A stretch of DNA of 64,000 nt from assembly GCA_035652395.1 (NCBI GenBank), contig DASRDX010000012.1, positions 96,778 through 160,777 on the forward strand, read 5' to 3'. The notes beneath the pieces are model-generated. The model did no database searches. It saw nothing but the letters and a program-made list of their open reading frames with translations, and was not told the DNA's origin. Source of the DNA: Minisyncoccota bacterium. Lineage in GTDB: Bacteria; Patescibacteriota; Minisyncoccia; Phycocordibacterales; CAJBRS01. Made by a program: the position numbers and the translations under genes. Positions within the stretch are counted from its first letter, which is position 1, and each line of letters begins with the position of its first letter. This document shows positions 19,281-37,114 of the stretch, in pieces.

Positions 19281-20009
19281 ATGATCCAATACTTTTTCAA
19301 ACCGCTCTTCTATATTCCCCTCTACAATGCTCTAGTTTTTCTTCTCTCTATCTTACCGGCTGCCAGTGTGGGTCTCGCCGTCATTCTTTTAACCTGTATT
19401 GTCAAATTAATTCTCTTTCCCTTAACTCGCCAATCGGTTGTTACTACCGCTAAATTAAAAAAACTTGAACCGGAACTGGCCGTTCTTCGAAAACAATACG
19501 AAAAAGACAAACAGGAACAAGCTCGGCAAGTAATGGCATTTTATAAGAAGAACCAAATCAATCCTTTTTCCGGAGTTTGGCTTTTGCTGATTCAAACGCC
19601 TATTATTTTAAGCCTCTATTACATTTTCTTAAAAGGAGGGTTGCCAATCATTGATGTATCTCTCCTTTACCCATTTATTCACCCGCCGCAGGTGGTGGAC
19701 ATGACATTTTTGGGTCTTAACATCGCGCACCCCCAATTTATTTTTGGCCTCCTGGCCGGCGTTACACAATTTATTCAGATTCAATTGTCTGTACCGCCGG
19801 TGAAAAAGCTGGCTGACGGCACAACCCCAACTTTCAAAGACGATTTGGCCCGCAGTATGAATATGCAGTTTCGTTACGTGCTGCCTGTCGTCATTTTTAT
19901 TATTTCCCTAAAAGTTTCCGGAGCAGTCGCTCTTTACTGGGCGACCAGCAACCTATTCATTATCGGGCAGGAATTAGTAGTTCGACGGCAGCTTAAAAAA
20001 ACCTCTTAA
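19281..20009 (+). CDS. yidC: membrane protein insertase YidC (short form)
   Basis: 242 aa, multi-transmembrane, at the position of the 60 kDa inner-membrane protein family gene in the origin operon. Confidence 0.8.
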   Translation: MIQYFFKPLFYIPLYNALVFLLSILPAASVGLAVILLTCIVKLILFPLTRQSVVTTAKLKKLEPELAVLRKQYEKDKQEQARQVMAFYKKNQINPFSGVWLLLIQTPIILSLYYIFLKGGLPIIDVSLLYPFIHPPQVVDMTFLGLNIAHPQFIFGLLAGVTQFIQIQLSVPPVKKLADGTTPTFKDDLARSMNMQFRYVLPVVIFIISLKVSGAVALYWATSNLFIIGQELVVRRQLKKTS

Positions 20010-21406
20010 TGAGCCGGCGGAGTGTAAGGAGTGCTGGTTGGAGCTACAACAGGGCCTGTAGTAGCTGGCGTGCTGCTAGAAACAATTGGACCGGGAGGCT
20101 GCGTAATTAAAAGATTCCACAAGGTCAGATCTCGTTTGTTGGTAAACATTAAATAATTTTCGTTTGGATCAAGCGAAAGATTGACGGCGTCGATTGCTTG
20201 TTTGGTTAGATCGGCCGTTCTGGCAACGACAGTACGTTCTCCAGTCTGAACATTGATTTTCCAGAAATTATCGTTGAAGAAAACACTTCCCTGATACCAA
20301 ACGTCCGGATAGTTTCCTTTCTTCACTAAAATTGGCACGGCACAATAAACCACCGTAGTTGCTTTCTGACTCCAAACACATTTTTCGGGCAGAGTTTTCA
20401 AGGAAAGACTGGAAGCGCTACCGCTTTTAGTGTTGAAAAGATTTAAATCAAAATCCACCGTATTACTTTCGTTAAAAAGAATATAACTAAGATCCGGTGA
20501 GGTTAAAGTAGTTAAGCCCGGCACATTTCCCAGAACTTTAGTTAGGGAACCTGTCGTACTATTCATAAAGAAAACATAGCCGGGAATATAAGCTGAAGGT
20601 CTGGTGGTCAGAGTTAAAGTGTTAGTCTTTGGCCAACTAACTTGCCACTCTTTTAAGGGGAAATTAAAAATCTGTTTTGGCTTGGCATTATTTGGCGAAG
20701 CGACGGAACCTATTCCTCCCTGCCCCCCGGCTCGGAGATAAAAAATCTGGTCTCTCCCCGGCGAGAGAGCCAACTCCGTAATATTTTCCGGCAGGGCATA
20801 AGTGAATAAAGATTTTGGCCCACTATTTCCTCCGACCGTTGTAGTGGTGGCGGTGGAGGTGGAAACTAGAACATAAGAAGTCTCAATTGTATTTTCGTCA
20901 GAGCCTAAGTACCGAAGTAGCGCTGAATTACCCTGATTAGTAATAAGAGCTTGGTAGATTTTAGGCAGCGTGGTGTTAGTTATTTCAGCCACATCCAAAG
21001 AATCAGGTTTGGTTTCAAAGAAGTGGCTAGTAGCCCGATCAACATACCGAATAAAAGTCTGAACCAGAGAAACATTTTTAACTTGTCCTTGATTATCTAC
21101 CGTGGTTGAAGCCACCACTCGTTGAATAAAACCCGCGCCCGCTACCGGCGCTTTAGTAACCTGGCGCAAACGCGGAATGGTGACCATCGCACCGCTATCA
21201 GATTGAATGGTAGCCGTCGGGCTGGAACTAGCCGTTCCTTCCGGGCCGCCGTTAAATAAAGAAAAAATTGTACCAAAAATTCCTCCAGAACTTTGACCTT
21301 GCGACGACGACTTTCCTTTCATAATAGCCAAAGCAAATAAGACGCCGATAATTATCACCACAATTATCAAAACAACTATAACAATTTTAACTATTCTTGA
21401 AGTCAT
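20006..21406 (-). CDS. membrane-anchored Thr/Ser-rich extracellular protein (first gene of the T4SS-like locus)
   Basis: 466 aa. N-terminal transmembrane helix IVKIVIVVLIIVVIIIGVLFALAI; its stop overlaps the upstream gene. Confidence 0.4.
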   Translation of the reverse strand: MTSRIVKIVIVVLIIVVIIIGVLFALAIMKGKSSSQGQSSGGIFGTIFSLFNGGPEGTASSSPTATIQSDSGAMVTIPRLRQVTKAPVAGAGFIQRVVASTTVDNQGQVKNVSLVQTFIRYVDRATSHFFETKPDSLDVAEITNTTLPKIYQALITNQGNSALLRYLGSDENTIETSYVLVSTSTATTTTVGGNSGPKSLFTYALPENITELALSPGRDQIFYLRAGGQGGIGSVASPNNAKPKQIFNFPLKEWQVSWPKTNTLTLTTRPSAYIPGYVFFMNSTTGSLTKVLGNVPGLTTLTSPDLSYILFNESNTVDFDLNLFNTKSGSASSLSLKTLPEKCVWSQKATTVVYCAVPILVKKGNYPDVWYQGSVFFNDNFWKINVQTGERTVVARTADLTKQAIDAVNLSLDPNENYLMFTNKRDLTLWNLLITQPPGPIVSSSTPATTGPVVAPTSTPYTPPAH

Positions 21407-22389
21407 TAATGTTTAGAATTATAGAAAGTAAAGCTGAGATTACTTCCGTCATAAACAGCATTCTTTCCCGGCACCGCCAATCCCAGTGTTTGAGCGGCGT
21501 GAAGTGAGATCTCGCCGTATCCAGTCGCGCCAGCGTCTCCTACAACGGCCCAGGCGGTTTTACCAGTCTTGCTATCAGTTATTAAAACAGGAGTTCCCAT
21601 GGGAATACCTGAACCAGTGGGCACTGCTACATAGTTGTCAGTTGTGGCATCCAGGCAAGAATTATTCGGGACATAACTAGTACAACTTTTATGTGTGGTC
21701 GGATCCAAACCCGGATCAGTTCGTCCGTCGGTATCAATAGCCACATTATCAGAGTTAATAGTGTACCCTTCTATGTAGTTGTCGTTTGAATCCAGTAAAT
21801 AATTGGAGCCATCGGGGTTAATCACCGCAGTAGAGCCGTCATTGTAATCAATGTAATGGATTCCGTTACTATCATATTCATCAGCGATACCATTGCCTCC
21901 ACCAGTTGTACCAACGGTCCCGCCCGGACCATATTGACCAGCCGGCACCAGAGTTCCTCCTCCAGTCTGAGCGGCCCCGCCAACAGAAACAGGAGTAATT
22001 TGAAGATTGGTTTTAAGAAGGGCCGGATTAATAGTGTTAAGAATAACGTAGGCTCCCAAAGCCAGAATCAATCCCCAAATCGCCGAAGTCATTCGGTTGA
22101 TTCCTTCGGATTTATTAGAAACAGCATCACTTGACATATATTGGATTCCTCCAATGACTATCATGATTACAGCTAAGCCGCTGGCTAGAGCTACCCCGAA
22201 CTTAAACATAGTATTTAGATATCCGCTCAAACCTCCGGCTGCACTGTTTGTGTCAGTGTAACCATCGATTGGGGCCAAGGGCACATATCCTTGGGCTAAC
22301 CCGACAAGCGGGATCGCAAAAAACCCCAACATACTAATTAGAAAAAAGATTTTAAAAAGATTATGAAATTTTGATTTAGAAAGAAGCAT
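21406..22389 (-). CDS. VirB2/TrbC-like pilin domain fused to a C-terminal RlpA-like DPBB (lytic) domain
   Basis: Signal peptide followed by two hydrophobic helices (GVALASGLAVIMIVIGGIQY, AIWGLILALGAYVIL), then a Gly-rich linker and PMGTPVLITDSKTGKTAWAVVGDAG...GEISLHAAQTLGL, which matches the RlpA/3D core. The start is trimmed to the internal Met. Confidence 0.5.
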   Translation of the reverse strand: MLLSKSKFHNLFKIFFLISMLGFFAIPLVGLAQGYVPLAPIDGYTDTNSAAGGLSGYLNTMFKFGVALASGLAVIMIVIGGIQYMSSDAVSNKSEGINRMTSAIWGLILALGAYVILNTINPALLKTNLQITPVSVGGAAQTGGGTLVPAGQYGPGGTVGTTGGGNGIADEYDSNGIHYIDYNDGSTAVINPDGSNYLLDSNDNYIEGYTINSDNVAIDTDGRTDPGLDPTTHKSCTSYVPNNSCLDATTDNYVAVPTGSGIPMGTPVLITDSKTGKTAWAVVGDAGATGYGEISLHAAQTLGLAVPGKNAVYDGSNLSFTFYNSKH

Positions 22390-23440
22390 TTTGGCTACTA
22401 TTGTTTGAGAAGTTAACAATGATATTGGTGGAAGCGGACTGTAAAATACTTGACGGCACAGTGGCCGATACAGAAATCGCGGATTGTCCATTTTGATTAT
22501 CTGGCTTTCGGAAAACTACTTCACTTTGATGAGGATCAAGAGCCATGGCTGAATTATTTAGATACCAAGCATAATTAATAGTCTTATCAGTAGGAGAAGT
22601 GGCACTAAAATAAAATGGAAAAGCGCCAAATGTAACTTCCGAGGCGGTTAAATCGAACTGGCTGTCTAAAATTTTATTAAAAAGAATGCCGTTTAGCGGA
22701 CTGTCTTCATATAAAAGTACTTGAGGATTTTGAGACGCTACACTTATAGCTCCCGAACCACTAATGTTATTTTTTACCAAAGACGCCTCAACACTTACAT
22801 TAATTGGTTGATTCAAAATATCGCCGGTAACAGTCAGGGTTCGTTTACCGTATCCAGATTTGTCTCCAAGTACGGAATTGTTTAGGCGCCATTTATACAC
22901 CAAAGTGTTAGGGTCCACCGTCACCCCATTCGAAACAAAATTAGGGAGAGCAACGAAGGTTAAAGTGCCTTGAGGTGGATAGAGACGTTTCCCTTCATAA
23001 AATGGGGGCACATACGAATTTGCTTCCCAAACAATATCAACGCTGGCCGGACTAATATTTACCGTCTTCGTAATTCTAGTGCCGTTAACCGGTAAAATAA
23101 TAACCTGTACAGCCGAGAGACTGCCTGCCGCGCCAGTTGTAAATTCAAAGGAGGTAGCACCCACGCCGTTTTTTTGAACGACTCCATTTACTAACCAGGA
23201 AATGTCAGCTCTATTTAGATCCGTGCCAAAGGCTTCAAGAGAAAGATTAACTAGTTGACTTGGTGCAGGATTTTCAGGATTAACCTTAATATTTATCTGC
23301 TCCTCAAGCCCAGGAATTAGACTAGGTAAAGAAGGACTATTATAGTCCGTATTCTGGGCGTAGCCAATTGAGAAAAAAGAAAAAAGAAGAATCAGTAGAA
23401 GAGAAAAAGTCAGCCGAGAGTATAAATGACTAAACTTCAT
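22376..23440 (-). CDS. secreted hypothetical protein
   Basis: 354 aa with signal peptide MKFSHLYSRLTFSLLLILLFSFFSIGYAQ. Confidence 0.4.
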   Translation of the reverse strand: MKFSHLYSRLTFSLLLILLFSFFSIGYAQNTDYNSPSLPSLIPGLEEQINIKVNPENPAPSQLVNLSLEAFGTDLNRADISWLVNGVVQKNGVGATSFEFTTGAAGSLSAVQVIILPVNGTRITKTVNISPASVDIVWEANSYVPPFYEGKRLYPPQGTLTFVALPNFVSNGVTVDPNTLVYKWRLNNSVLGDKSGYGKRTLTVTGDILNQPINVSVEASLVKNNISGSGAISVASQNPQVLLYEDSPLNGILFNKILDSQFDLTASEVTFGAFPFYFSATSPTDKTINYAWYLNNSAMALDPHQSEVVFRKPDNQNGQSAISVSATVPSSILQSASTNIIVNFSNNSSQNASF

Positions 23441-23476: not shown

Positions 23477-23917
23477 CTAAGCGGTATCTCCGAGGGTATC
23501 TGATGAGGCATTTTCAATCGAAATCTTATTGATTTGCTTCTGATTATAAACATCATCTTCTTCTCGGGTAATTTCAGTTACTTGTCGAACAAAAGCCCTA
23601 ACACTTGGTTCAATCAACCCTTTTTTGGTGCGGCTAAAGGCGAAGACGTTCACAATGGGAATGAGAGATAGAACAAATTTGCCGGCTGCTGCCCCAGCTA
23701 TTTTCCCTTTGAAAACTGAAACACCTTTAGTGGCAAACCAGAAAGCAAACATACAATAAACTAAAGCCATAAAAATAAAGCTCACTATCTCTCCTATTCC
23801 AAACCAGTCACCGAGAATATTTACTAGAAAATTAATCCCATAGGCAGCCCAAGCCACTGCCCCCATCAACATTTCTGAAGCGGCAGATATTCTGTTGCGT
23901 GTATAAATAACTGCCAT
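23477..23917 (-). CDS. small polytopic membrane protein
   Basis: 146 aa with three predicted transmembrane helices; lies immediately downstream of virB4. Confidence 0.4.
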   Translation of the reverse strand: MAVIYTRNRISAASEMLMGAVAWAAYGINFLVNILGDWFGIGEIVSFIFMALVYCMFAFWFATKGVSVFKGKIAGAAAGKFVLSLIPIVNVFAFSRTKKGLIEPSVRAFVRQVTEITREEDDVYNQKQINKISIENASSDTLGDTA

Positions 23918-23919: not shown

Positions 23920-25743
23920 TTAGGTCTGCGTAGATTCTTCAGCAACTTGAGCCTTGGCCTGTTTGATGGCCAGAAGCTGGTGCGGATCGGAAGTGATGAT
24001 CTGATCTTCGGTGTAAGAAGCGATGACTTTAATGGCGACGTGTTTGAGGCCGGCGAAGAAAATTCCTTCCCCAACATCTGATTCCAAAAGCAGGTATTTT
24101 TCTTCCTCGGTTAAGTTGAAAGTTTTCTGCACCACATCAATGGAAGAAGCCGATTGTTTCATTAACATTTGAATTGACGAGTTCGTGATAATTGGCATGC
24201 CGTATTGCGACTTCATGAAATCTTCCACGTCTTGAGTAATGGTGGCGAGCCCCAAGAAATATTTTCGGCCTCGTTTAGCCAGACCGAGTAAGAACGAAGC
24301 GGTGTCTTCCGATTTCATCATCCACCAAGCCTCGTCAATTACCAACAAACGCTTTTTCAGTTCCTTGCGAATAGAATTCCAAATGAAGTGAGTGACGATA
24401 TACATTGCAACCGGTTTTAATTCATCTTCCATGTCGCGAAGTGAAAAGACCACGAACTTCTTATTAATATCCACGTTTGTCGGGCGGTTAATAAATCCGG
24501 CCCAAGTTCCTTTAGTGTATTTTGAAAGTCTTTGAACCAGCGATTCTCCCCCCTCCATGCCCGCCAGCACCAGTTCGAAGTCTGAAAGAAGGGGTGGCTC
24601 AATATTGGCGAAATTGCTCTCGGAAGTGATATCTTTAAGAGCGTAAGTTTCAGTGATGGCCCGATCAATAATGGAATCTTCTTCCGGAGTTAATCCTCCA
24701 AGCATTAACCGGAATAGACCGACTAAATTCACAATGTTGGAGCGCAAAATATCTGCTTGTGATTCGTCTTCGCGAGCGATTGGCAAATCAAATGGATTGA
24801 TGTGGTTGTCGGAAGTCAAAGAAATATTGAAGTATCGGCCACCAGTCGCTTCGGCTAGGAATTCATATTCTCTTTCCGGGTCAATGACAATGACATCGGT
24901 ATCGAACATCAACGAACGCAGAATTTCCAGTTTAGTGAAATAAGATTTTCCGGAACCGGCCTTGGCAAAAGTAACGGAGTTGTAATTTTCCAAAGAAAAG
25001 CGATCAAAGAGAATCAAGCCAGAATTATGACGGTTAATTCCGTAAAGAATTCCTTTATCGGAAGTTAAATCAAAAGAAATAAAAGGAAATAGGCTGGAGA
25101 GCGGCGAGGAATTTAATTTTGATCGAACTTCCAGAAGGTCGGTAGCAATTGGCAGAATGCTTTTATATCCCTGCTCCTGCTGGAAAAGAGCCGGTTTGAC
25201 GTAAACTAGACTGGCTTCCAGAATCGATTTCACTTCGGATTCCAATTTATCCAACTCACCTTCATTGGCTCCGTAAATGGAAATGTAAAGACCGACATCA
25301 AAGATTCTTTCTTGGGCTTGTTGAAGATTGTCGCGAAGTTGTTCCAAATCCTGATAAGCAGTGTCAAGAACTGGATCGCGTACCAGTCCTTTTTCTTCCC
25401 GAATGGAAATCTGACTTTCTACTTCGGCCACCTTTTTCTGAAACTGGCGGAGAATAGTGGCAGTATCAATCGGATGAACAAAAATGGAAATATCGAAGAC
25501 CTTGTCCAAGTTGATGATGGGAGAAAACCATGATTCGCCAAGAAATCTAGGGTAGGAAATGACAAAGAAAGTGCGCACCATTTTATCACCCAGATTCATT
25601 TCCCGCGGCGTAATTTTTAGGGCAGACGGAGCGATAATATCTTTCAGCTCCAAAACCCCTGATTGATAAATCTCCTGCGGCAGGATGGAAGTAATCTTAG
25701 GTGTCTCCTTCTGTTCGGGTTTTAAAAAGTCCAATAAAGCCAT
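23920..25743 (-). CDS. virB4: T4SS ATPase VirB4/TrbE family (Gram-positive PrgJ/TcpF-like)
   Basis: 607 aa. Walker A FAKAGSGKSYFTK, Walker B-like VIDEAWWMM, NPFD motif. Confidence 0.8.
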   Translation of the reverse strand: MALLDFLKPEQKETPKITSILPQEIYQSGVLELKDIIAPSALKITPREMNLGDKMVRTFFVISYPRFLGESWFSPIINLDKVFDISIFVHPIDTATILRQFQKKVAEVESQISIREEKGLVRDPVLDTAYQDLEQLRDNLQQAQERIFDVGLYISIYGANEGELDKLESEVKSILEASLVYVKPALFQQEQGYKSILPIATDLLEVRSKLNSSPLSSLFPFISFDLTSDKGILYGINRHNSGLILFDRFSLENYNSVTFAKAGSGKSYFTKLEILRSLMFDTDVIVIDPEREYEFLAEATGGRYFNISLTSDNHINPFDLPIAREDESQADILRSNIVNLVGLFRLMLGGLTPEEDSIIDRAITETYALKDITSESNFANIEPPLLSDFELVLAGMEGGESLVQRLSKYTKGTWAGFINRPTNVDINKKFVVFSLRDMEDELKPVAMYIVTHFIWNSIRKELKKRLLVIDEAWWMMKSEDTASFLLGLAKRGRKYFLGLATITQDVEDFMKSQYGMPIITNSSIQMLMKQSASSIDVVQKTFNLTEEEKYLLLESDVGEGIFFAGLKHVAIKVIASYTEDQIITSDPHQLLAIKQAKAQVAEESTQT

Positions 25744-25763: not shown

Positions 25764-26402
25764 TTAAGTGAGAGGAATAGGTTTTTCCGTATCTCCCGGA
25801 TTAAAAATTTTATAAAAGAGCTCGATTAACTCCTCTGTTCCGAGCTGAACCACTCGAATACCGCAACGCACCAACCCCTGTTCCACAACGTCAATTCGCT
25901 GTTCCAGCTGGGTTCGATGCTCCTCAAAACTTTGGATGTTATCAGCCGCCACTTCCTTTGGGTTTTTTCTTTTCAAGAATCCCCCACCAATAGTTTTTTT
26001 GGCTTGAAGCATGGCCGGAGTATATGGAATAACAATAAAAAAACTTTTAGTCATGATATTGGTGTTTTCAGTAAAATTTTTGATGAACTCAATGTATTCA
26101 TGAGTCTGGATTTTCATCAGATCGATTTTTTGTTCTTTTTCCCGCTGCTCGAGAAGGGCGATGTAAGGACGAATGTCGAGTTTGCGCGACTGAACGAAAA
26201 TCTGAATGGAAAAATTCAGGGAGTTTAGAAAATTTTGAAATTGGAAAATAATGGAATTCTGCTCATCCGCTGATTTCAGGGCAAAGTTTAAAGAAGAAGT
26301 CATAATTAAGGAGCGCAATGATCCGTCTTTCAATACAATAACGCCGTCTCGAATTTCTTTGATCGGTACAAATTCCTGTGTTGCTTTTGAAGGAGTAGCC
26401 AT
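25764..26402 (-). CDS. T4SS-associated hypothetical protein
   Basis: 212 aa in a different frame from virB4, separated by 20 nt. No catalytic motif seen; it weakly resembles VirB4 N-terminal regions. Confidence 0.35.
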   Translation of the reverse strand: MATPSKATQEFVPIKEIRDGVIVLKDGSLRSLIMTSSLNFALKSADEQNSIIFQFQNFLNSLNFSIQIFVQSRKLDIRPYIALLEQREKEQKIDLMKIQTHEYIEFIKNFTENTNIMTKSFFIVIPYTPAMLQAKKTIGGGFLKRKNPKEVAADNIQSFEEHRTQLEQRIDVVEQGLVRCGIRVVQLGTEELIELFYKIFNPGDTEKPIPLT

Positions 26403-26404: not shown

Positions 26405-26854
26405 TTAAATTCTTAAGCCTAAATCTTCATCGCGCTTCTTGCGAGTTTCCTGTGAATAAAGAGTGTCATTGATGTCCAGACTCCAAGTTAAATCTTTCAA
26501 TTTGCTTTCGGAAAGCTTTGGCACATAAATGGAGGAAACAGCGGCACTTTCTTCTTTTTTCTCTTCCGGTTTTCTCTCTTCCTTTTTCCAGATGTAGAGC
26601 TTGTGACTGATGGCGTAATTAAAAGCCGATTCCATAAGGAGAATAAACGGACGATTATTGACCTTGTAAAAAGCCAAAGCGATTCCCAGGCCGAGCGATC
26701 CTAAAATGGGTAGGACGGCTACGTAAAGAGGAAGGTAACGGAAAAAAATGTAAGAAAGTCCCGCTCCACCGGCCAAATAAAGGAACTGTTTGAAAGTTAG
26801 CGGTCCAAAGATCTTATCCTCTACTTCAATGAATTGTGGAACTTGATAGCGCAT
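26405..26854 (-). CDS. PrgI/VirB3-like small membrane protein
   Basis: 149 aa. MRYQVPQFIEVEDKIFGPLTFKQFLYL followed by two transmembrane helices, as in Gram-positive conjugation PrgI-family proteins. Confidence 0.5.
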   Translation of the reverse strand: MRYQVPQFIEVEDKIFGPLTFKQFLYLAGGAGLSYIFFRYLPLYVAVLPILGSLGLGIALAFYKVNNRPFILLMESAFNYAISHKLYIWKKEERKPEEKKEESAAVSSIYVPKLSESKLKDLTWSLDINDTLYSQETRKKRDEDLGLRI

Positions 26855-28049: not shown

Positions 28050-30008
28050 TTAATGAGTTGGTGTCCCGGGGCTTGGCTTATTTCTTCCCTCATCTGTATT
28101 TTTGGCAATATCCTCAAGTTTTCTTTCCATCTTACTTTCAATTTTACCTTCTTTTTCCAAGATTTCTCTAATCTTTTTAAAACCACTTTCTTCTTCTTTT
28201 TTCTTGGATTCATCTAAATAAAGTTTTCCCTCTCGCACATTCTTCCTCAATTCTTTAGCGGCCGCACGACGGGAACCGACCTTAAAACTACTAGCTTCCA
28301 GTTCCTCCGTTTGTTTTCTTTGTTCCTCAAGTCTGACATTTTTACTAAATTCATTTTGGGCCGCCTCTAAATCTTTTTGCGCGCCCTCTCTAGCGCGTGA
28401 AGCGTCAGCCAAATTCTTTCGTGCCTCTTTTGTTGCCGTATCGCCAACCGCTGTCGTTAACTGTTGTTTAGCAGCCTGATAGTCCTGTTCAGCCTTTTCT
28501 CGAGCCTTTCGAACATCTTCTGTTTTGAGGGGCATTTCTCTTTCTAGTCTGTTACCAGCTCTTTTATCGGCCTGAAGCGCTTCAAATTTAGTACGTCTTG
28601 TATTGATTTCTTCCACCCGCTTATCTATATCTTTAACGGACTCTTTTGCTCCAAACCTAGTCGCAACAAGTCTTCCGGTAGTTGCTCTTTTTACTGCGTC
28701 TCCAACACGAGTATTCCCAAATCTTTCAAATCTCCCTCCCTTCTCGAAAGATTTGTTAAGTGCATTAATACCAAAACCCCGCACAGCACTCCTACCAGCG
28801 ATCCCTTGTGCGCGTTTTCTTATCCCGTGAAAAGTTTGAAGAGCTAATTTTCCTCCTCGCGTTCCCCCGTTTTTGGCTAAAATTAAGGAAGCAATAAGAA
28901 AACCTATGACAACGGCATAACTAAACAGTACTCCAATAGCCGCCCTGCTACCCGAAGCGAGAGCCACAAAAGGGTTTCCTGAAATATTTTGATTATTTAG
29001 AAATGAGGTGGAATTTAAAATTCGGAGACTAACCCAAATCAACATAAAAAAAATGGGCGCAACCAAAGCTTCAGAAAATAATTTATCCCACCACTGAGAA
29101 GCGTATTTATTTGTTTGGGGTAAGATCATGGCGATAAAAGCCACCGGCGAAAAAATCATCAGGATAACTAACATTAGAAATCTGACAATGAAAATGATTG
29201 CTCCTGCCAAAAATACAAAAGCAGCTATTAAATAAACTACAATGCCTAACACAATAGCCATTAACTTAACGTTCGCGTTTGCCGTCTGGTTAACTGGATC
29301 TTCTACATAATTTCCATTTTGGTCAGTTTGATAATTATAAAGATCTTTTAGGTGTAGCGGACCAACAAAGGCATCCATTAAACCAGTTGCCGTTACTCCA
29401 TTTGTATTTGCAGAATTATTTAAAGGCAAAGCAGAATAAAAGCTGTACGAAAAGTAATTTGAGGCATCTATAATCACTTTGGTAAAGAAAAGGCTAAAAT
29501 TAATTAACAAGGCAATAATAATAAGATTAATCAATAACTTTTTGGTATTAAAACCGTTAATTTGAAGAATAGTCGAGATGGCGATAAACAGAATAATAAA
29601 GATAAAAAAGATATTGGCTAAATCTCGAAAAGCTTTCCACGCTTCAGGCAAAGCTCCAATACGATCAATATTGTCTCTCATATGAATTACCGTCTGGTCG
29701 ATAATGAAATTGAAAGCCACAGCCACTAACCAAAAAATAAAAGCAGCTATCTTTAGAATAAGATATAAGAATGTTATGAAATATCCATAGATAACACTTA
29801 AAGAATAAGTAGCTACCGCTTTTCCTCCAGAACTCAAGCAATCACTGGCCGAACCCGTTACAATTGACCACAATCCGTCATTCCCTGCCTTTAAACAATT
29901 GATAAGACCGCTGCTCTGGGCATGAGTTACATGGGCAGAAGCAAAAAAGACAATGGCTACAATTATGAAGAAAATTTTTAAAATCTTTTTATTTACTCGC
30001 TTCATCAC
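28050..30008 (-). CDS. VirB6/TrbL-like polytopic membrane protein with a charged coiled-coil tail
   Basis: 652 aa. Signal peptide, at least 6 transmembrane helices, C-terminal KRAE-rich region. Confidence 0.45.
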   Translation of the reverse strand: MMKRVNKKILKIFFIIVAIVFFASAHVTHAQSSGLINCLKAGNDGLWSIVTGSASDCLSSGGKAVATYSLSVIYGYFITFLYLILKIAAFIFWLVAVAFNFIIDQTVIHMRDNIDRIGALPEAWKAFRDLANIFFIFIILFIAISTILQINGFNTKKLLINLIIIALLINFSLFFTKVIIDASNYFSYSFYSALPLNNSANTNGVTATGLMDAFVGPLHLKDLYNYQTDQNGNYVEDPVNQTANANVKLMAIVLGIVVYLIAAFVFLAGAIIFIVRFLMLVILMIFSPVAFIAMILPQTNKYASQWWDKLFSEALVAPIFFMLIWVSLRILNSTSFLNNQNISGNPFVALASGSRAAIGVLFSYAVVIGFLIASLILAKNGGTRGGKLALQTFHGIRKRAQGIAGRSAVRGFGINALNKSFEKGGRFERFGNTRVGDAVKRATTGRLVATRFGAKESVKDIDKRVEEINTRRTKFEALQADKRAGNRLEREMPLKTEDVRKAREKAEQDYQAAKQQLTTAVGDTATKEARKNLADASRAREGAQKDLEAAQNEFSKNVRLEEQRKQTEELEASSFKVGSRRAAAKELRKNVREGKLYLDESKKKEEESGFKKIREILEKEGKIESKMERKLEDIAKNTDEGRNKPSPGTPTH

Positions 30009-31903
30009 TGTTGAATTACTTTAAATAATTGTCCCAACGCCGTTTGAATCAAATTGTTTACTAATTGAGTGACCATTTGATCATATCCTCCAGCGTTATT
30101 GGCCAATCTTTGAGTAGCCAACTGGTTATTTGCATTAAATTGAGCTAAAGATTGAGCACCCGTAACTTGGGTTAGACAATTGGTAGGTTGCCCGAAAGCA
30201 TCTACTGTTCTTACGCCACTACAACTGTCTATGTTTAATTGTCCTTGGTTGGCTAAATATTTTAAAGTCTCAGACCTATCACTTTGATTGAGAGCAGTCT
30301 GTAGTTGATCTGTCAATTTTAATTCCGCACCAAAAATATTGTAATCATCGTTTTGGCTAACGGCAAAGATTCCATCAAGACCTTGTTGATTAACCGCCTG
30401 AGCATTATATGGCGCTAACCCGCCTCCACCCGACGAATAATTTTTAACTAAATTTTGAATCACTTGACCTTGAAAGGGGGCACCACTATTTTGAGATTGT
30501 AAATAAGTGAAATAATTTTTTGCAGTCTCATTTTGGACTCCTAATAAAAATTGTGAAAGATTCTGAACGAAAGCAGGGTTGCCATTGAAGGCGGTATACA
30601 TCCAATTAAGGGTGGACTGCTGAATGTATTTGATCATAGCGTTTTCCAAACAATATGAGACAGCGTCCCAGCTCGGTTGATTTGGGAAACCAACTTGAGC
30701 CGCTCTAATATAACGTGCATCGTTAGCATTTTGAGTAACGCTGCCATTGATTTGAGGCAAGGTGCTGGTGATGTATGGCGCTGTTGCGTCATTGATATCA
30801 ATTGAGCCTCCTCCACCAGCGCCTCCTCCTCCTAGGCGTTTTGGAGTGGCCAGAAGAGCACGGTCTCCCGAGATTACTCCCCTGATCGCCGGTGTCAGAA
30901 TCTGACCGATAGTACAACCAAGAGCGTTAGTAGTGGCTTGAGAAATTCCTTGAAGTGCGCTGGCTTGCGGTCCAACGGTACTTGCTCCGCCCCCAGTATA
31001 AGAAGCGACTTGCGAGCGAGTTGGACGCGTACTAGTGCCGGTAGTGGTTGCTCCATTATTCAAATCGCCGGGCGCGCTGGCAAAATCGGAAAAGTCCTGA
31101 CTGAAATGCCAATAAAGATCGATGTATGAGCCGGCCGGCACATTCAATAATCCATTACTATTAAGATATGGCGGCGTGTTAGTAGTTAAGAAATTAATAC
31201 TGACAGATTTTCCGGCAATTGGAATGTCGTCATGACACGTCACATTATTAATACAAAGAGTGAAACCGGAATACCATCCGTCGGGTACGGTTACGGAAAC
31301 AGTGTGCAAACCCGGAGGTAAAGTGTCGAAAGAATAACTGGTAGTTGTGGCCGTATATCGTCCGTCCAAGGTAACAACTTGAGAATCGGCCACGCCACCA
31401 ATCGGTACTTTAAATCCCATAATGCAATCTGCCGTGCCTCGACACAGATAGAGAGGACCTTGATATGTGCTGGTTGAATTGCAACTGTTGCCACTACAAT
31501 CGTTTGTAACATTAAAAGCATAAGCATTGCTGGTGCCGTTGGCGTTAGTAATGGAAATTGGATAAGCACCGCTCGGTAGTGGCGTAGTGCCGTCACTTAA
31601 AGTGGTTGGAACATTAAAAAATAGCGAGGTGCCATCCGGTGAACTAATGCCGCTTAAGTGTTGATTGCCAAAGTTAACTGTGTTGTTAGATGAAGTAAAA
31701 CCGGTGCCGTATAAATTAACGACTGTGCCAGAAGGTCCGGAAGTCGGAGTTCCATTGCTTAGAGTAACCGCCGAAGCTTGGGCATTTGCATTGTAAGATC
31801 TGACGAAAAGCTGCGCGATTTTAGGGACGACTAAAACGGCCACTAAGACTACGGCTATGATCGCCACTCCCCAAATAATTTTTCTGTATTCAATTTTATT
31901 CAC
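30005..31903 (-). CDS. membrane-anchored surface protein with an IPT/TIG-like N-terminal domain
   Basis: 632 aa. Transmembrane anchor, then TLSNGTPTSGPSGTVVNLYGTGF, which is IPT-like; rich in Gly, Asn and Gln. Confidence 0.4.
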   Translation of the reverse strand: MNKIEYRKIIWGVAIIAVVLVAVLVVPKIAQLFVRSYNANAQASAVTLSNGTPTSGPSGTVVNLYGTGFTSSNNTVNFGNQHLSGISSPDGTSLFFNVPTTLSDGTTPLPSGAYPISITNANGTSNAYAFNVTNDCSGNSCNSTSTYQGPLYLCRGTADCIMGFKVPIGGVADSQVVTLDGRYTATTTSYSFDTLPPGLHTVSVTVPDGWYSGFTLCINNVTCHDDIPIAGKSVSINFLTTNTPPYLNSNGLLNVPAGSYIDLYWHFSQDFSDFASAPGDLNNGATTTGTSTRPTRSQVASYTGGGASTVGPQASALQGISQATTNALGCTIGQILTPAIRGVISGDRALLATPKRLGGGGAGGGGSIDINDATAPYITSTLPQINGSVTQNANDARYIRAAQVGFPNQPSWDAVSYCLENAMIKYIQQSTLNWMYTAFNGNPAFVQNLSQFLLGVQNETAKNYFTYLQSQNSGAPFQGQVIQNLVKNYSSGGGGLAPYNAQAVNQQGLDGIFAVSQNDDYNIFGAELKLTDQLQTALNQSDRSETLKYLANQGQLNIDSCSGVRTVDAFGQPTNCLTQVTGAQSLAQFNANNQLATQRLANNAGGYDQMVTQLVNNLIQTALGQLFKVIQQ

Positions 31904-31971: not shown

Positions 31972-33045
31972 TTAGATGTTATTCCACATCAATCCAGGCT
32001 CATCTTTATTGAAGATTATAGCATTTTCCCGCAGATATTGGGCAATTTTAAGGTAGAAAGTGGGTAAAATATTGCGGTTGTTCTGATAAAGTTTAGCGTC
32101 CAGCACTCCTTTTACGGGGTCGGTCTGATAATTATTCAAATCTGAAAGAGCTACATACATTTGATTGTAACCGTTGACGATCGAAAGATGGATTTCTCCT
32201 ATTTCATTCGGTACGGCAATTTTAGAAAGATCATTTGCCAACTTTTTATAATAACTGGCGGATTGATCGTAGGTTGGATTGGAAATGAGTAAATAATCGT
32301 CCGAATCTTTCTGGTAAACTGAAGCAAGGGCGTTAGCGTAAGTTTTAATTTGATCTTTAGATGGAGAGTTTATGATATTCAAACTATCCAAAGTATATTT
32401 TTGAGCGGCTGGCGTAGAAGAGGGAACGCCGGAGAGAATATTTTGAATTAAAGTGCTTTTGTCCGGTTCTGAAACTTTACCGTTTTGATCTTGAGCTGTT
32501 AGATAAGAAGTAAAGAAATTTTTGGAGAGACTTTGAGTGAGATTGTTACTGGCAGAATTGTCGGTAGAAACGGCGATCTGTACGGCAGTGGTGATACGCG
32601 AATCTCCCGCTGAAAGGTAATCAGTGTAAGGCGGCGAGGCTCCGTTCGAACTTAGTTTGCTTGGGTCTCTTCCTTCATTTACTTCTACCCCGTCCAATGT
32701 GCCGTCACCGTCCGTGTCTGGATTTTTTGGATTGGTGTGCCAGATATTTATTTCCGCGTAATCACTCAAGCTGTCGCTGTCGGAATCTTTCTGGTTTTGA
32801 AGATTGTTTGCGGCTGAATATGAGAGATTTTTCTCGCCCAAAACCGAACTGGCGATATGATTTTTAGAAATAAAGACAACTAAAATTACCACTAGAGCAA
32901 GAATGCCGAGATAAAGGATTTTTTTACTTGGTTTTTTACTGTTTGGAGTCAAGAAAGTAAGCCTTTTAGCTATTATAGCATGGGGAAGCAAGCGGCCGGC
33001 CGTATCTTCGGCCGGCCGCTTGCTTCCCCAATCATTGTGCGCCAT
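31972..33045 (-). CDS. membrane-anchored protein with thrombospondin type-3-like Ca-binding repeats
   Basis: DSDSDS stretch and NPKNPDTDGDGTLDGVEVNEGRDP. The first roughly 30 codons overlap a 22-bp hairpin, so the true start may be the TTG near 32947. Confidence 0.4.
   Translation of the reverse strand: MAHNDWGSKRPAEDTAGRLLPHAIIAKRLTFLTPNSKKPSKKILYLGILALVVILVVFISKNHIASSVLGEKNLSYSAANNLQNQKDSDSDSLSDYAEINIWHTNPKNPDTDGDGTLDGVEVNEGRDPSKLSSNGASPPYTDYLSAGDSRITTAVQIAVSTDNSASNNLTQSLSKNFFTSYLTAQDQNGKVSEPDKSTLIQNILSGVPSSTPAAQKYTLDSLNIINSPSKDQIKTYANALASVYQKDSDDYLLISNPTYDQSASYYKKLANDLSKIAVPNEIGEIHLSIVNGYNQMYVALSDLNNYQTDPVKGVLDAKLYQNNRNILPTFYLKIAQYLRENAIIFNKDEPGLMWNNI
32981..33030. promoter_or_regulatory. 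22-bp perfect GC-rich hairpin (TGGGGAAGCAAGCGGCCGGCCG...)
   Basis: Perfect inverted repeat with loop TATCTT, at the divergent junction between the T4SS operon and the hydrolase genes. Confidence 0.55.
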
Positions 33046-33060
33046 AATTAAGTCGTCTTT

Positions 33061-34044
33061 ATGAAAAAATTTTTCATACCCCTTTCTTTTACTCTGTTAT
33101 TTCTCCTCTTATCATTATTCTTTATCTCGGAAACAAAAGCCCAGAATACTACTTATATCCCGCAAGGTAGTTTTCACTACGGTGCCACTGGATCCGAAGT
33201 AGAACGGCTTCAAGACGCTTTAGTTGTCTTAGGCTATCTCCAACTCTCCTCCAGCGATTATGATAATGGCGGCTATGGTAGTTTTGGACCGAAAACTCGA
33301 GCAGCGCTAGCTCAATATCAAGCGGATAACGGAATTTTTGGCGGAAACAATGGATATTATTACGGCCCCCAGACACGTCAAAACCTCCAAGACGATCTAA
33401 GTGTTTCAGCAAGCTCTAATCCCAATTCAGGATTGGCCGTTCAGCCTACTGTTCCTGGAGCGAATGGTGGCATATCTTCTAACGGCTCTACTCAAACTTC
33501 GCCACCGCCAGTTGTTAACGGAAACCCTACTCAGTCGAACAATTCAACCGCCAATCCTCCCGCTTCTCAGACAACTACTTCTTGTTTTAAACCGACCACT
33601 TCTGTTCCCTCTTACACATTACAAGCTCGAGTTACTTATTTCTACCCAGGTGACGGATCTTTCGGGGGTTGGGGAACGGCTACTAATTTAGATCTTCATA
33701 ATTTTGTTCTCAGTCAGAATTCACCTTACTTTCCATACCCTTGTCGTATCTTTGGAGCAGCCGCCGTGGATCCGCATCTTATTCCTTATGGAAGTTTAAT
33801 TAAAGTCTCTACTCCTTCGGTTGGAGATTTCTATTACATTGCTGCCGACACCGGTCCAGATGTGGTGTCTCGCAAAGCTTCCATAAAGTCCAGATCGTAC
33901 GGAGCAGATGGCAAACCGCTTCCAATTGTGGACTTATTTAGTCAAACTCCGAATTACAATGCATTCAACAGTGTTGTAACCATTACTCCGAAATTTTTCA
34001 CGATCAGTGGGGGTAGCTACAATGTTTCTGGTGGTTCAATTTAA
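33061..34044 (+). CDS. secreted cell-wall hydrolase: peptidoglycan-binding domain plus 3D domain
   Basis: Signal peptide, PG_binding_1-like GATGSEVERLQDALVVLGYL...GPKTRAALAQYQ, C-terminal 3D-like AAAVDPHLIPYGSLIKV...AADTGPDV...IVDLF. Confidence 0.6.
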   Translation: MKKFFIPLSFTLLFLLLSLFFISETKAQNTTYIPQGSFHYGATGSEVERLQDALVVLGYLQLSSSDYDNGGYGSFGPKTRAALAQYQADNGIFGGNNGYYYGPQTRQNLQDDLSVSASSNPNSGLAVQPTVPGANGGISSNGSTQTSPPPVVNGNPTQSNNSTANPPASQTTTSCFKPTTSVPSYTLQARVTYFYPGDGSFGGWGTATNLDLHNFVLSQNSPYFPYPCRIFGAAAVDPHLIPYGSLIKVSTPSVGDFYYIAADTGPDVVSRKASIKSRSYGADGKPLPIVDLFSQTPNYNAFNSVVTITPKFFTISGGSYNVSGGSI

Positions 34045-34047
34045 ACT

Positions 34048-35241
34048 ATGTTACTCAAAACTAAAATTTTTTTACTGTCCCTCTTGATTTTCAGTCCAAT
34101 TTTCTTTATTCATGCCGAAAACTATCTTTCCATTTCCGCTTCCTCCACCTTCTCCCGCGATCTGGGCCTAGGCAATCGTGGCCAGGATGTTGAAAATCTA
34201 CAATGCATTTTAGAAGTCAGTACACCCACAGGCTATTTCGGTCCGATTACCCAAGGAGCTCTGGTGCAGTTTCAAAATGCTCACGCCGCTGACATCCTAA
34301 CTCCGGCGGGGTTAACTCAAGGTACCGGTTATTTTGGGGCCAGGACTCGAGCCTTCATTAACACACAATTAGCTCAAAAAGGAGCAACCTCAACTACTCC
34401 AACTTGTCCGACGTATGTACCGCCTGGTTCCACCCCAACTCCTACTCCAAATCCTTTACCAAACCCACAACCAACACCGAATCCAAGTCCTAATCCCAGC
34501 CCAACCCCGACCTCATGTCCAACTGGCTACAGTTGCACCCCAACTCAGCCCGCTAATTGTCCTATCGGTTATAGTTGCTTACCTACACAACCAACCTTCA
34601 ATTCTTATGGACTAAACGGTTACGGGAATATCAGTGATCCTTACAACAATCCTTACTCCGCTTACAGTCCTTCTATAAACGCGAATGCTTACACAAACCC
34701 GAATATTAGTCCGTTAGTTGGTCATGCTTCTCCCAATAATCAATATGCTGCATATGCCGAGGACGTTAATCCAGCCGAGCTTCAGGCTTATCTGAATCAC
34801 GGTTGGTATTACGGTAAAGACAATGGCGGAAATGATTGCCGAATTGATCCCGTAATCGAATTCTTGATTGAAAAAGTGCCGAAGCTTTTCCCATGGGCAC
34901 AGGTCAATAGCAGTTGTAGAACGCAAGCATATAACAACCAGGTCGGAGGCTCTCCATCCTCTGCGCACATTACCGGTGAGGCAGTAGATTTTGGCAGTCA
35001 AAGTGGTATGAGCGGCCTCCTAAACAGTACCGATCCAAAATGTCCGGCCAGCATCAAAGCCAATTGTTTGGGTCAGGGGCAGCAACTAGTTATCTGGGCT
35101 CAGCGAAACGGCGCTATCTTAGGATTACATCAAATCATTTTCGACGGAGTCTTATACAATTCTCCCGACGGAATAAACTGGACAAATAAACCATATACTG
35201 AATACGGGGGTCACTATGACCATGTTCACCTTGGCCGCTAA
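34048..35241 (+). CDS. secreted PG-binding protein with a C-terminal M15-type (VanY/LAS-like) metallopeptidase domain
   Basis: PG-binding GNRGQDVENLQCIL...GPITQGALVQFQ, Pro/Thr linker, SSAHITGEAVD (SxHxxGxAxD) and DHVHL. Confidence 0.55.
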   Translation: MLLKTKIFLLSLLIFSPIFFIHAENYLSISASSTFSRDLGLGNRGQDVENLQCILEVSTPTGYFGPITQGALVQFQNAHAADILTPAGLTQGTGYFGARTRAFINTQLAQKGATSTTPTCPTYVPPGSTPTPTPNPLPNPQPTPNPSPNPSPTPTSCPTGYSCTPTQPANCPIGYSCLPTQPTFNSYGLNGYGNISDPYNNPYSAYSPSINANAYTNPNISPLVGHASPNNQYAAYAEDVNPAELQAYLNHGWYYGKDNGGNDCRIDPVIEFLIEKVPKLFPWAQVNSSCRTQAYNNQVGGSPSSAHITGEAVDFGSQSGMSGLLNSTDPKCPASIKANCLGQGQQLVIWAQRNGAILGLHQIIFDGVLYNSPDGINWTNKPYTEYGGHYDHVHLGR

Positions 35242-35362
35242 TACTGAGGGAACAGCTCATTCGATATACATCCTGGACTGTGACAAAAAGCAGCGACCAA
35301 AATCAAAGGCCGCTGTTTTCTTTCTCTTGTTGCCTTTTTCTATTGGGGTATAATTACTTCAA

Positions 35363-37114
35363 ATGAAAAACAAATCTATTTTTTTCAGTCTTTTAATAGC
35401 CGCTCTCTTAATCCTGTTCGCTAAAAATTTTTCCTCCCATATTTTGGCCCAAAGTTACTCAAGTCTATTTAATAATCCTCAGACCACTACAACCACCACT
35501 ACCACTACTCAAACCACCGGCACCTCCTTTACACCGGTCTATGCTAATAGCCGCTGGTCCGAAGATACAATGCGAAGCTATTTCGGCCAGTACAACATTA
35601 GCGTAGGGAACGGTGCCACGGTATATGGTTTGGGAAACTTTGCTGTTACCGGCATCATTTCTTTGAAAAAAACCACTGACTATTACAATGCTGTAGTTCG
35701 CGGATCGAATACGCCAGCCAATATTGTAGTTGTACGAGCTACCGAAACTTACGGAATAGACAAACCTGTTCTTGATGTTCAAACCGACGCCGTCTTGGAT
35801 AATTTCATTACTACTTTGGCCACCAATCGCGGCAATACTTCAAGTGGCAATCTCTATCAGCTCGGGGACGATTACTTCTTTCAGCAAAGCGGCTACTGGC
35901 ACATCATCTTCGGCCCCTCAAATGGCGCATTTGTTAAAAACACCATTGCCTTCTTTGGTATCGTCCGCGACAATTTCAATGTTCAGCATCCGACTTTGAC
36001 TAACACCAATGTCCCCTCTTCCGTTAATTTTTATCGAACCCTTTCACTTGGATCGAGCGGATCGGACGTCCGAGATCTTCAAAAACTTCTTAATACTGAT
36101 CCTTATACTCAAGTCGCCCCAAGTGGTGCCGGCTCTCCCGGAAACGAATCAACTTACTTCGGTGCTCGCACTCAAGCGGCGGTCAAAGCTTATCAATACA
36201 AAAACAATGAAATCCTGGATGCGGCCGGCATCACTACTCCTTCCGGCATCGTTGCTTCGTTCAGCCGCGCTCATCTCACTGCATATTGGAATTATCTAAA
36301 TACAAATTTGCGCGGCACCGGTCATTCTCCGGTTTTGCAATACCCAACTCCAACTAAACCACTTCAGGATATTCCGTTAAACGGCACTTATCCGGCCACG
36401 ACTGTTTCTGCTACTTCCACCATAACTATTACTCCGACAACCACCCCAATTGCTGTTATTACTACTCCTAATGCGCCAACTTATAGCGGCTCATACGGAG
36501 ACCTGCCAGTGCAAGGCAACCCTAACGACTCACTGAATAACTTGCCGGTCTTTCAACAGCCACCAGTGGTTAATGGTAGCAATGTTACAGATCCAAATAA
36601 CTCCGCCAATCAATCGAGCGCCCAACAGCCGTCATTACTTCAAAGCTTACTACCAACCATTCTGCAGACAGCTACTAGATTTTTGACGGGTAGTACGGGA
36701 GGATTAGGGGGACCTTCTGCTCTACCTGAATTTGGAGGCCATACTCTCTATAATTCAGTTTATGACAATAGTCCTTATAAACCGTGTGGAGTTAGCGCAG
36801 CAGTTTCTATTGTAGTAAACGATAATTCGGCCAAACCCACCGGAATTAAACCCATTGTCTTGGCACAGTCTCCCTCAACACTATTAATTAATGGATCTCC
36901 TCCTATAGGAGCTTGTGTTTTGGGTAGTTATACTCCAAGTGGCGCTGCAGCTATTGCTGGCTGTCAAACCAAAGTCAAAATAAATAACCAGGATGTTGTG
37001 GTTCCCGGAACAGGGCAGGCCCTCAATATTGACCCACAATTCCAGCCTTATAAAGTACTTCCGGTTACGGGTGCTATCGGTATGATGAATCAAAATTCAG
37101 GAGCTTGTCACTAA
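35363..37114 (+). CDS. secreted Thr-rich protein with a central peptidoglycan-binding domain
   Basis: 583 aa. Signal peptide, poly-Thr stretch, GSSGSDVRDLQKLL...GARTQAAVKAYQ. Confidence 0.45.
   Translation: MKNKSIFFSLLIAALLILFAKNFSSHILAQSYSSLFNNPQTTTTTTTTTQTTGTSFTPVYANSRWSEDTMRSYFGQYNISVGNGATVYGLGNFAVTGIISLKKTTDYYNAVVRGSNTPANIVVVRATETYGIDKPVLDVQTDAVLDNFITTLATNRGNTSSGNLYQLGDDYFFQQSGYWHIIFGPSNGAFVKNTIAFFGIVRDNFNVQHPTLTNTNVPSSVNFYRTLSLGSSGSDVRDLQKLLNTDPYTQVAPSGAGSPGNESTYFGARTQAAVKAYQYKNNEILDAAGITTPSGIVASFSRAHLTAYWNYLNTNLRGTGHSPVLQYPTPTKPLQDIPLNGTYPATTVSATSTITITPTTTPIAVITTPNAPTYSGSYGDLPVQGNPNDSLNNLPVFQQPPVVNGSNVTDPNNSANQSSAQQPSLLQSLLPTILQTATRFLTGSTGGLGGPSALPEFGGHTLYNSVYDNSPYKPCGVSAAVSIVVNDNSAKPTGIKPIVLAQSPSTLLINGSPPIGACVLGSYTPSGAAAIAGCQTKVKINNQDVVVPGTGQALNIDPQFQPYKVLPVTGAIGMMNQNSGACH

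Follow-up and report, generated by a model that had tools for sequence, protein, structure and literature searches.

The 64-kb stretch of DNA analyzed here (hereafter, the window), from contig DASRDX010000012.1 of a Minisyncoccota bacterium, encodes a type IV secretion system (T4SS) of the kind found in nearly all ultra-small Patescibacteria. The source organism belongs to Paceibacteria (Parcubacteria), and not to Saccharibacteria. The T4SS locus consists of 12 co-directional minus-strand open reading frames (ORFs), which run in the ORF list from g12 to g1 (33045 down to 20006), and three divergent plus-strand ORFs, h1 to h3, which span 33061–37114 (Table 1). Neighboring genes within g1–g12 are spaced by −14 to +68 nt, and we therefore treat them as a single operon. 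This arrangement of 12 plus three genes had been proposed in an earlier model-generated reading of the sequence (the original prediction); its coordinates were exact, and the same genes had been called independently on the contig of origin (ENA ERZ27279688 k141_729253; 209,357 bp). Beyond g1 lie dnaN, dnaA, rnpA, and yidC, the last of which overlaps g1 at the stop codons; beyond g12 and the h genes lie ksgA and then a gene for a UvrD/PcrA helicase. The GC content of the T4SS locus is like that of its flanks. A promoter and terminator scan of 19–38 kb gave counts not above those of shuffled sequence.

For comparison, we used the loci of 80 Patescibacteria metagenome-assembled genomes (MAGs) (L001–L080), chosen by VirB4 similarity as the best 80 of at least 596 species genomes that have VirB4 relatives.

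Table 1. Features of the T4SS locus and of the remainder of the window (positions in the window).
Feature	Position	Strand	Description
g1	20006–21406	-	Last operon gene; N-terminal membrane anchor and probable beta-propeller ectodomain
g2	21406–22389	-	Signal peptide, VirB2-like two-helix pilin module (nt 22030–22230), Gly-rich linker, GH75 chitosanase-like domain (nt 21409–21894)
g3	22376–23440	-	Secreted protein with Ig-like repeats (weak evidence)
g4	23477–23917	-	Small polytopic membrane protein, fast-evolving, kept by position
g5	23920–25743	-	VirB4 ATPase, C-terminal three quarters, MPF_FATA/CD1110 type (by profile)
g6	25764–26402	-	TrsD-like protein, N-terminal domain of VirB4 as its own ORF (by alignment)
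g7	26405–26854	-	PrgI/VirB3-like membrane protein, predicted to tether VirB4
g8	26854–27231	-	23S_rRNA_IVP/bAvd-like four-helix-bundle gene (PF05635, 5.4e-27)
Perfect 24-bp inverted repeat, 8-nt loop	26987–27042		Within the g8 coding sequence
g9	27228–28040	-	Soluble protein (no transmembrane segment), candidate cytoplasmic adaptor
g10	28050–30008	-	Extended VirB6-like polytopic protein: signal peptide, ~6 membrane helices, long charged helical C-terminal tail
g11	30005–31903	-	Membrane-anchored envelope protein; variable IPT/TIG-like N-terminal part, conserved Cys-containing C-terminal domain (~residues 400–632)
g12	31972–33045	-	First operon gene; N-terminal membrane anchor, Ca-binding TSP3 repeats, conserved C-terminal domain of unassigned fold
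h1	33061–34044	+	Secreted PG_binding_1 and 3D (MltA-like) domain protein; lineage-variable accessory
h2	34048–35241	+	Secreted protein with PG_binding_1 and putative M15 metallopeptidase domains; lineage-variable accessory
h3	35363–37114	+	Secreted Thr-rich protein, central PG_binding_1 domain
PilB-type gene	5806–7488		Type IV pilus ATPase
DnaA-box-like group	16916–18526		On both sides of dnaA
comM	41791–43362		ComM transformation helicase
ORF, 336 aa	43804–44814	-	No Pfam match at E ≤ 1e-4
Polynucleotide phosphorylase gene	44841–46949
Tyrosine recombinase gene	48047–48967		Resembles standard XerC/D type
DnaA-box-like group	52977–53284		Intergenic, beside tRNA genes
ORF, 236 aa	55053–55763	+	No Pfam match at E ≤ 1e-4
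ORF, 457 aa	55803–57176	+	No Pfam match at E ≤ 1e-4

Motor, channel and pilin genes

The product of g5 matches the NCBIfam model conju_CD1110 at 367.6 bits (cutoff 325), across positions 178–733 of the 752 in the hidden Markov model, as well as PF19044 (9e-26), and it retains the Walker A (GSGKS, residue 263), NPFD (residue 316), and Walker B (LLVIDEAW, residue 466) motifs of VirB4. Its counterparts in the 80 comparison loci are 78–92% identical to it; identity to plasmid VirB4s is at most 34%. By these matches g5 is assigned to the monoderm lineage of mating-pair formation type MPF_FATA, in which it groups with other Patescibacteria VirB4s. Directly upstream, g6 (its own ORF in 79 of the 80 loci) matches NCBIfam VirB4_plasma over positions 100–233 (1.2e-11), TrsD (1.8e-6), and CD1110 over positions 2–126, and carries the precomputed domain PF26593 (TraC-like). 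Residues 6–203 of g6 are collinear with residues 21–192 of an unsplit 783-aa clostridial VirB4 (E = 5e-6). Judged from this alignment, VirB4 is split into two ORFs, with g6 as the N-terminal part and g5 as the ATPase, and g6 is accordingly assigned as the TrsD-like ORF found next to virB4 in T4SSs of the Patescibacteria clade.

The g7 product, present in 76–78 of the 80 loci, is identified by its match to PrgI (PF12666; 1.2e-9, 39 bits vs. a cutoff of 27), with a weaker match to TcpE, as the predicted VirB3/PrgI homolog near virB4. The VirB6-like polytopic protein is encoded by g10. All NCBIfam matches of g10 are below cutoff (Mbov_0396 ICE transmembrane protein, 2.7e-5; MMCAP2_0566, 7.7e-5; CD3337/EF1877, 1e-3), and the families concerned are membrane proteins of integrative conjugative elements (ICEs) of Mycoplasma and Firmicutes. 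Homologs of g10 carry precomputed PF04610 (TrbL/VirB6) and PF19590. In an AlphaFold model of residues 1–430, with a predicted local distance difference test (pLDDT) score of 80, six of the eight best Foldseek matches in the PDB were TrwI/VirB6 chains of R388 (E = 3.6e-3, probability 0.97–1.0), with modest template modeling (TM) scores of 0.3–0.5. A profile of g10 searched against PDB sequences matched coiled-coil proteins only, by way of the tail.

The g2 product joins a pilin module to an enzyme-like domain. Its true start is M35 (22389), in agreement with the database gene call. The pilin module scores 26.3–26.5 bits against PF18895 (T4SS_pilin), 0.1–0.3 bits short of the cutoff of 26.6; among 65 syntenic orthologs, PF18895 is matched by 54 (best 2.4e-10) and TrbC/VirB2 by one. 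In the structural model, a signal helix is followed by a two-helix hairpin, a disordered Gly-rich linker, and a beta-rich C-terminal domain (pLDDT >90). The latter has the double-psi beta-barrel fold of GH75 and retains the catalytic Asp/Glu pair; the Pfam GH75 model (Glyco_hydro_75) gave no match in g2 at E ≤ 0.1. Kinship of this domain with the 3D domain of h1 was considered and rejected, as BLASTP found no similarity between them.

Extensions of at least 100 residues beyond the pilin module occur in 49 of 64 syntenic pilin ORFs, of which only three have a Pfam-recognizable enzyme domain (3D, SLT, and NlpC/P60). A wider set of g2 homologs also includes SLT, NlpC/P60, VanY, M15_4, and YkuD domains, and the GH75-like domain is common to about 20 homologs. 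Across relatives, the pilin module is kept and the C-terminal extension is swapped between lineages. No mention of pilin–enzyme fusions of this sort was found in the literature searched.

The VirB4, PrgI/VirB3-like, and VirB6-like assignments of the original prediction therefore all stand: VirB4 and PrgI score above the cutoffs of their T4SS families with the Walker A/B and NPFD motifs in place, and the VirB6-like protein is borne out by the families of its homologs and by its fold. The VirB2/TrbC-like pilin that was also predicted is kept as a putative assignment for the module, recognized in most orthologs with the g2 score itself just under cutoff; its start has to be moved to M35, and a glycosidase-like domain has to be added after it. 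The profile matches of VirB4, PrgI, the VirB6-like protein, and the pilin all indicate the monoderm MPF_FATA type.

Chromosomal position and conservation

The order dnaA–(rnpA)–yidC, g1 to g12, and ksgA–uvrD is kept in nearly all of 38 long loci from different species. Because nearly all related species have the locus at this one place, with yidC and ksgA on either side, we infer a vertically inherited core locus and not an ICE. Measured in the same genomes, median identity to the window proteins is 81% for VirB4 (a value slightly inflated by the selection of loci on VirB4 similarity), 67% for the TrsD-like protein, 62% for DnaA, 56% for UvrD, 55% for PrgI, 52% for KsgA, and 44% for YidC, and falls to 25–33% for the envelope parts and the other proteins of that group (g1, g3, and g9–g12). 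The genes between g12 and ksgA, and the C-terminal domain of the pilin, have been exchanged between lineages. Conservation of motor and channel above the level of DnaA, together with swapping of the exposed parts, fits an essential machine that faces a changing host surface.

Domain scans of the large ORFs in the window revealed neither a VirD4-type coupling protein nor a relaxase. Likewise, tblastn searches with clostridial VirD4, relaxase, and MobC gave no match in the window and the 80 loci, in all 81 of which VirB4 was matched. Boundaries of a mobile element were also not apparent: there is no adjacent integrase, and the yidC–ksgA position is fixed across species. The features by which a monoderm ICE is recognized (relaxase, VirD4/TcpA coupling protein, and element boundaries) are thus absent within the window and the 80 loci, and those of the Patescibacteria clade, namely a virB4 with no relaxase or coupling protein gene beside it and a location near dnaA, rnpA, and ksgA, are present. 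The original prediction had noted the lack of VirD4 and relaxase genes and had suggested a non-conjugative apparatus (for DNA uptake, as a pilus, or for host interaction) of the type proposed for the Candidate Phyla Radiation; both points are upheld by these searches and by the fixed position.

Envelope proteins, accessory genes and other features of the window

Besides the motor, channel, and pilin genes, the operon encodes six conserved lineage-specific proteins, five of them associated with the envelope (g1, g3, g4, g11, and g12) and one soluble (g9). Profile searches of PDB sequences with g1, g3, g9, g11, and g12 returned weak or repeat-level matches at most. The g1 protein (56–60 of the 80 loci) has one strong hydrophobic segment at residues 8–26; its ortholog profile gave a weak match to a TolB propeller (3.4e-3), and single weak matches to PD40 and DPPIV_N occur among its orthologs, for which the Pfam scan was otherwise unusable. 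The g3 protein has a signal-like N-terminus and is found in 72–76 of the 80 loci at 33% identity. Weak matches to Ig_3 and BiPBP_C were obtained for a few of its orthologs, in a Pfam scan likewise otherwise unusable. For g4, which has three to four hydrophobic segments, the Pfam scan of the ortholog set gave no family match; its slot is filled by a multi-transmembrane ORF of 110–340 aa in 52 of 72 loci examined.

The g11 protein has a single hydrophobic segment (residues 9–27) and a C-terminal domain that is conserved in 32 loci and has no Pfam or PDB-sequence match. Residues 40–140 of its N-terminal part resemble ORFs of the variable slot between g12 and ksgA in other loci, and Pfam TIG is carried by six ORFs of that slot. 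The g12 protein (45–47 of the 80 loci, ~25% identity) matches TSP3_bac (PF18884; 5e-6) and has one hydrophobic segment at residues 42–60, and its ortholog profile matches the Ca-binding repeat region of a biofilm surface protein (7c7r; 2.7e-5). The g9 protein lacks any hydrophobic segment and has no Pfam, NCBIfam, or PDB-sequence match. It is laid out as a conserved helical N-terminal domain, a disordered Pro-rich linker of variable length, an ‘L.EIENP’ motif, and a C-terminal DPYRE that is invariant in an alignment of 13 orthologs and has the look of a short linear motif for docking.

Of 40 loci, 17 have essentially nothing in the slot between g12 and ksgA, and most of the rest have one or two genes there; in the window it contains three. 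Among 31 slot proteins scanned (28 from other loci and the three from the window), PG_binding_1 was found in 12 and IPT/TIG in six. Because this slot is hypervariable, h1–h3 are regarded as accessories. The h1 protein, of which similar genes occur in only three of the 80 loci, matches PG_binding_1 (1.2e-7) and, below cutoff, 3D (1.5e-3; 19.1 vs. 23.8 bits), with the three Asp motifs present. Assignment of h2 as an M15 peptidase is credible, given its match to Peptidase_M15_3 (30.4 bits vs. a cutoff of 23.2) and the metal-site motifs SAHITGEAVD and HYDHVH. In h3, PG_binding_1 (1.2e-6) was the sole Pfam match, and no catalytic domain was recognized.

Of the surface and wall-active proteins proposed in the original prediction, the TSP3-repeat protein corresponds to g12. 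The IPT-like protein gave no direct Pfam match, its support coming only indirectly, through the slot whose ORFs g11 resembles and of which six carry TIG. The three secreted hydrolases all proved to have PG_binding_1, but a hydrolase domain above cutoff was found for h2 only, with the 3D domain of h1 under its cutoff and h3 having no such domain.

The g8 gene, of the IVP family, is not regarded as part of the T4SS. Genes of this type are found in only 16 of the 80 loci, as 19 copies, three loci having two. All 19 lie inside the core operon of the T4SS and on its strand, at four or five differing junctions that include g12|g10, g9|g7, g7|g6, and g6|VirB4. On other Patescibacteria contigs, homologs of g8 are found, again co-directional, within an operon for pyruvate:ferredoxin oxidoreductase (PFOR) and at clpB/glycosyltransferase and dnaB/recR junctions. 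Since these are unrelated housekeeping operons, g8 is taken to be a general operon hitch-hiker, and the possibility that it is a functional partner of the T4SS was rejected; the IVP genes behave as small genes that take up positions between co-transcribed, conserved neighbors. A role as an Avd-like accessory of a diversity-generating retroelement was also rejected, in that the scanned ORFs of the window include no reverse transcriptase and the match to bAvd is weak. The inverted repeat within g8 encodes RTAFREKV-QFY-TFSLKAVR and is absent from the closest ortholog (64% amino acid identity). The hairpin may be a lineage-specific product of template switching, and could serve as a site of mRNA processing or pausing in mid-operon.

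Elsewhere in the window, 9-mers resembling DnaA boxes are enriched (26 found vs. 13.5 expected) and are clustered on both sides of dnaA; one perfect TTATCCACA box, with neighbors, lies near 53 kb. Cumulative GC skew is lowest at ~50–52 kb and not at dnaA, and the replication origin may therefore not adjoin dnaA. The window also contains genes for a PilB-type ATPase, the ComM helicase, and polynucleotide phosphorylase, as well as three ORFs that had no Pfam match at the threshold used (Table 1).

Proposed role and comparison with known systems

We consider it very probable that the locus is a vertically inherited, chromosomal, non-conjugative T4SS of the Patescibacteria clade that descends from conjugation machinery of the monoderm MPF_FATA type and is present in the Paceibacteria arrangement. 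Several points weigh against this. The fold match of g10 to TrwI/VirB6 is modest, the Pfam score of the g2 pilin module is marginally below cutoff (the pilus is putative), and no VirB8-like component was recognized among the locus proteins. The selection of loci flatters the conservation of VirB4. A coupling protein may be encoded elsewhere in the genome, given that the search covered 64 kb of the 209-kb contig and that, according to a survey of Patescibacteria, most genomes have their VirD4/type IV coupling protein (T4CP) homologs well away from virB4 (Quiñonero-Coronel et al., 2025, Microb Genom, PMC12102498). Finally, the essentiality established by transposon sequencing (Tn-seq) for the T4SS of Southlakia epibionticum (Saccharibacteria; SEML1_0006-0019) (Wang et al., 2023, Cell, PMC10633639) belongs to that system.

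In the mechanism that we propose, VirB4 hexamers would dock via VirB3 on the VirB6 channel, and would build, from VirB2-like subunits and surface proteins, a short pilus or a conduit that spans the wall. Opening of the cell wall would fall to the tethered glycosidase and, in this lineage, also to the neighboring PG-binding 3D and M15 enzymes; the structure would contact the host cell of the reduced epibiont and move macromolecules between both cells. Reviews describe the function of the T4SS as wholly unknown and discuss export of effectors as well as import. Our guess, offered tentatively and at somewhat less than even confidence, is that transport serves the acquisition of host material over the export of effectors. 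Host-penetrating tubular structures and uptake of host RNA, by an unresolved route, have been described in a cultivated relative, and polynucleotide phosphorylase and VirB4, both encoded in the window, are the two proteins linked to host-RNA feeding in the same 2026 preprint (bioRxiv 10.64898/2026.06.21.733656).

The common fusion of this pilin module with enzymes that degrade the wall suggests how such a conduit could cross it. A broader proposal, which we rate as doubtful, is that the VirB2-like subunit of Paceibacteria T4SSs is a modular carrier of interchangeable wall-active domains (GH75-like here; SLT, NlpC/P60, VanY, M15, YkuD, or 3D in relatives) placed after a flexible Gly-rich linker. 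If g2-type subunits polymerize, they would form a pilus studded with enzymes, which would digest a path through the cell wall of the host or of the cell itself; if true, such a device for penetration would be without parallel among the T4SSs described so far. Less ambitiously, the pilin module may do no more than anchor a VirB1-like hydrolase next to the channel.

A T4SS that has no coupling protein can import DNA, as in the case of Helicobacter pylori ComB (cited in PMC11665869), and Patescibacteria are without nucleotide synthesis; in addition, VirB4 weakly matches archaeal CedB, and comM lies in the window. A ComB-like or Ced-like machine dedicated to DNA uptake for natural transformation is nevertheless unlikely. 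The match to the CedB model amounts to 34 bits against a cutoff of 700, and specific homology to ComB or Ced components was not found. No comEC gene adjoins the locus or was found among the scanned ORFs of the window. In Southlakia, competence requires type IV pili and ComEC, and deletion of comEC abolishes transformation but not viability (PMC12857230), so that the essentiality of the T4SS is independent of ComEC (PMC10633639, PMC12857230); its essential role is therefore not ComEC-linked DNA uptake.

It is improbable, too, that the locus mainly encodes an organelle for adhesion and cell-wall remodeling, by which the host is attached to without translocation. Such an organelle would account for the many surface proteins whose modules resemble those of adhesins (TSP3, IPT/TIG-like, Ig-like, and propeller), for the several wall-active enzymes attached or adjacent, and for the lack of a substrate-recruiting coupling protein. 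However, conservation is highest in the cytoplasmic motor and channel (VirB4, TrsD-like protein, and PrgI), as expected for a heavily used engine of transport or assembly, and Patescibacteria already attach by type IV pili (PMC12857230), for which a PilB-type ATPase is encoded in the window. An ICE, or the remnant of one, that transfers its own DNA to other cells is highly improbable, and conjugation is effectively excluded for this locus. In favor of an ICE are the family names of VirB4, PrgI, and the VirB6-like protein, which come from conjugative elements in Firmicutes and Mollicutes, the placement of the closest plasmid VirB4s in conjugation modules, and the presence of a tyrosine recombinase gene 11 kb off. 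That gene, however, does not adjoin the locus and resembles the standard XerC/D type; relaxase, MobC, and VirD4 are missing from the window and the 80 loci; the position is identical across species, with GC content as in the flanks and VirB4 more conserved than DnaA; and the survey reports relaxases from only 103 of its 3,035 genomes, seldom close to virB4 (PMC12102498).

The T4SS of the window, read as a non-conjugative chromosomal system, is an ordinary member of an already known system, published in 2023–2025. In the survey by Quiñonero-Coronel et al. (2025), T4SSs were reported from 2,417 of 3,035 Patescibacteria genomes; Patescibacteria VirB4s form a monophyletic clade within MPF_FATA; TrsD, PrgI, VirB6, and VirB2-like pilins are encoded near virB4; and the Paceibacteria T4SS lies near dnaA, dnaN, rnpA, ksgA, and rpmH (PMC12102498). 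The present locus shares the MPF_FATA VirB4, the TrsD-like ORF, PrgI/VirB3, the VirB6-like protein, and the putative VirB2-like pilin, as well as the absence of relaxase and T4CP genes nearby and the dnaA/dnaN/rnpA/ksgA neighborhood, and shows no essential difference from the system as described there. Three details absent from the parts of that account consulted are the GH75-like pilin fusion, the IVP gene in the operon, and the Mbov_0395/0396/0397 matches.

The T4SS of Southlakia likewise has Gram-positive-like subunits with pilin genes, no recognizable coupling or relaxase protein in the cluster, a position at the start of the genome, and cell-wall hydrolases encoded beside virB4 (PMC10633639). 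It differs in belonging to the class Saccharimonadia and in having six divergent small pilins, in contrast to the one long pilin–enzyme fusion here. Among conjugative systems, Clostridium perfringens plasmid pSXP-169_2 (NZ_CP143494.1; CD1110/CD1115 type) also has PrgI immediately upstream of a CD1110-family VirB4, which is followed by a wall hydrolase; its VirB4 is 32% identical to g5 over 88% of the length. The plasmid, however, encodes MobC, a relaxase, a VirD4-like CD1115 protein, and an unsplit 783-aa VirB4, whereas none of those three genes was found in the window and VirB4 is split. Compared with the viral GH75 chitosanase V-Csn (PDB 7TVL-7TVP), the corresponding domain of g2, a putative glycosidase, is tethered to a T4SS pilin module and has no Pfam GH75 match.

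Three NCBIfam matches, of g2 to Mbov_0395 (pilin-like; 3.9e-4), of g10 to Mbov_0396, and of VirB4 to Mbov_0397 (4.5e-77), are to models named for consecutively numbered Mycoplasma ICE loci. They hint that a monoderm MPF_FATA lineage may already have had a pilin-like subunit. The survey considers co-option of the pilin from diderm systems (PMC12102498); the Mycoplasma matches are relevant to the choice between such borrowing and inheritance along with the rest of the monoderm apparatus. Few machines have been shown to be indispensable for epibiotic life in this very large and largely uncultured part of the bacterial tree, and the T4SS of Patescibacteria is one of them. The locus described here is a clean and complete Paceibacteria example of it, and no new kind of system; the minor leads that it adds are the joining of the pilin module to a GH75-like domain, the IVP gene as a hitch-hiker, the variability of the slot that holds the hydrolases, and the weak Mycoplasma ICE matches.

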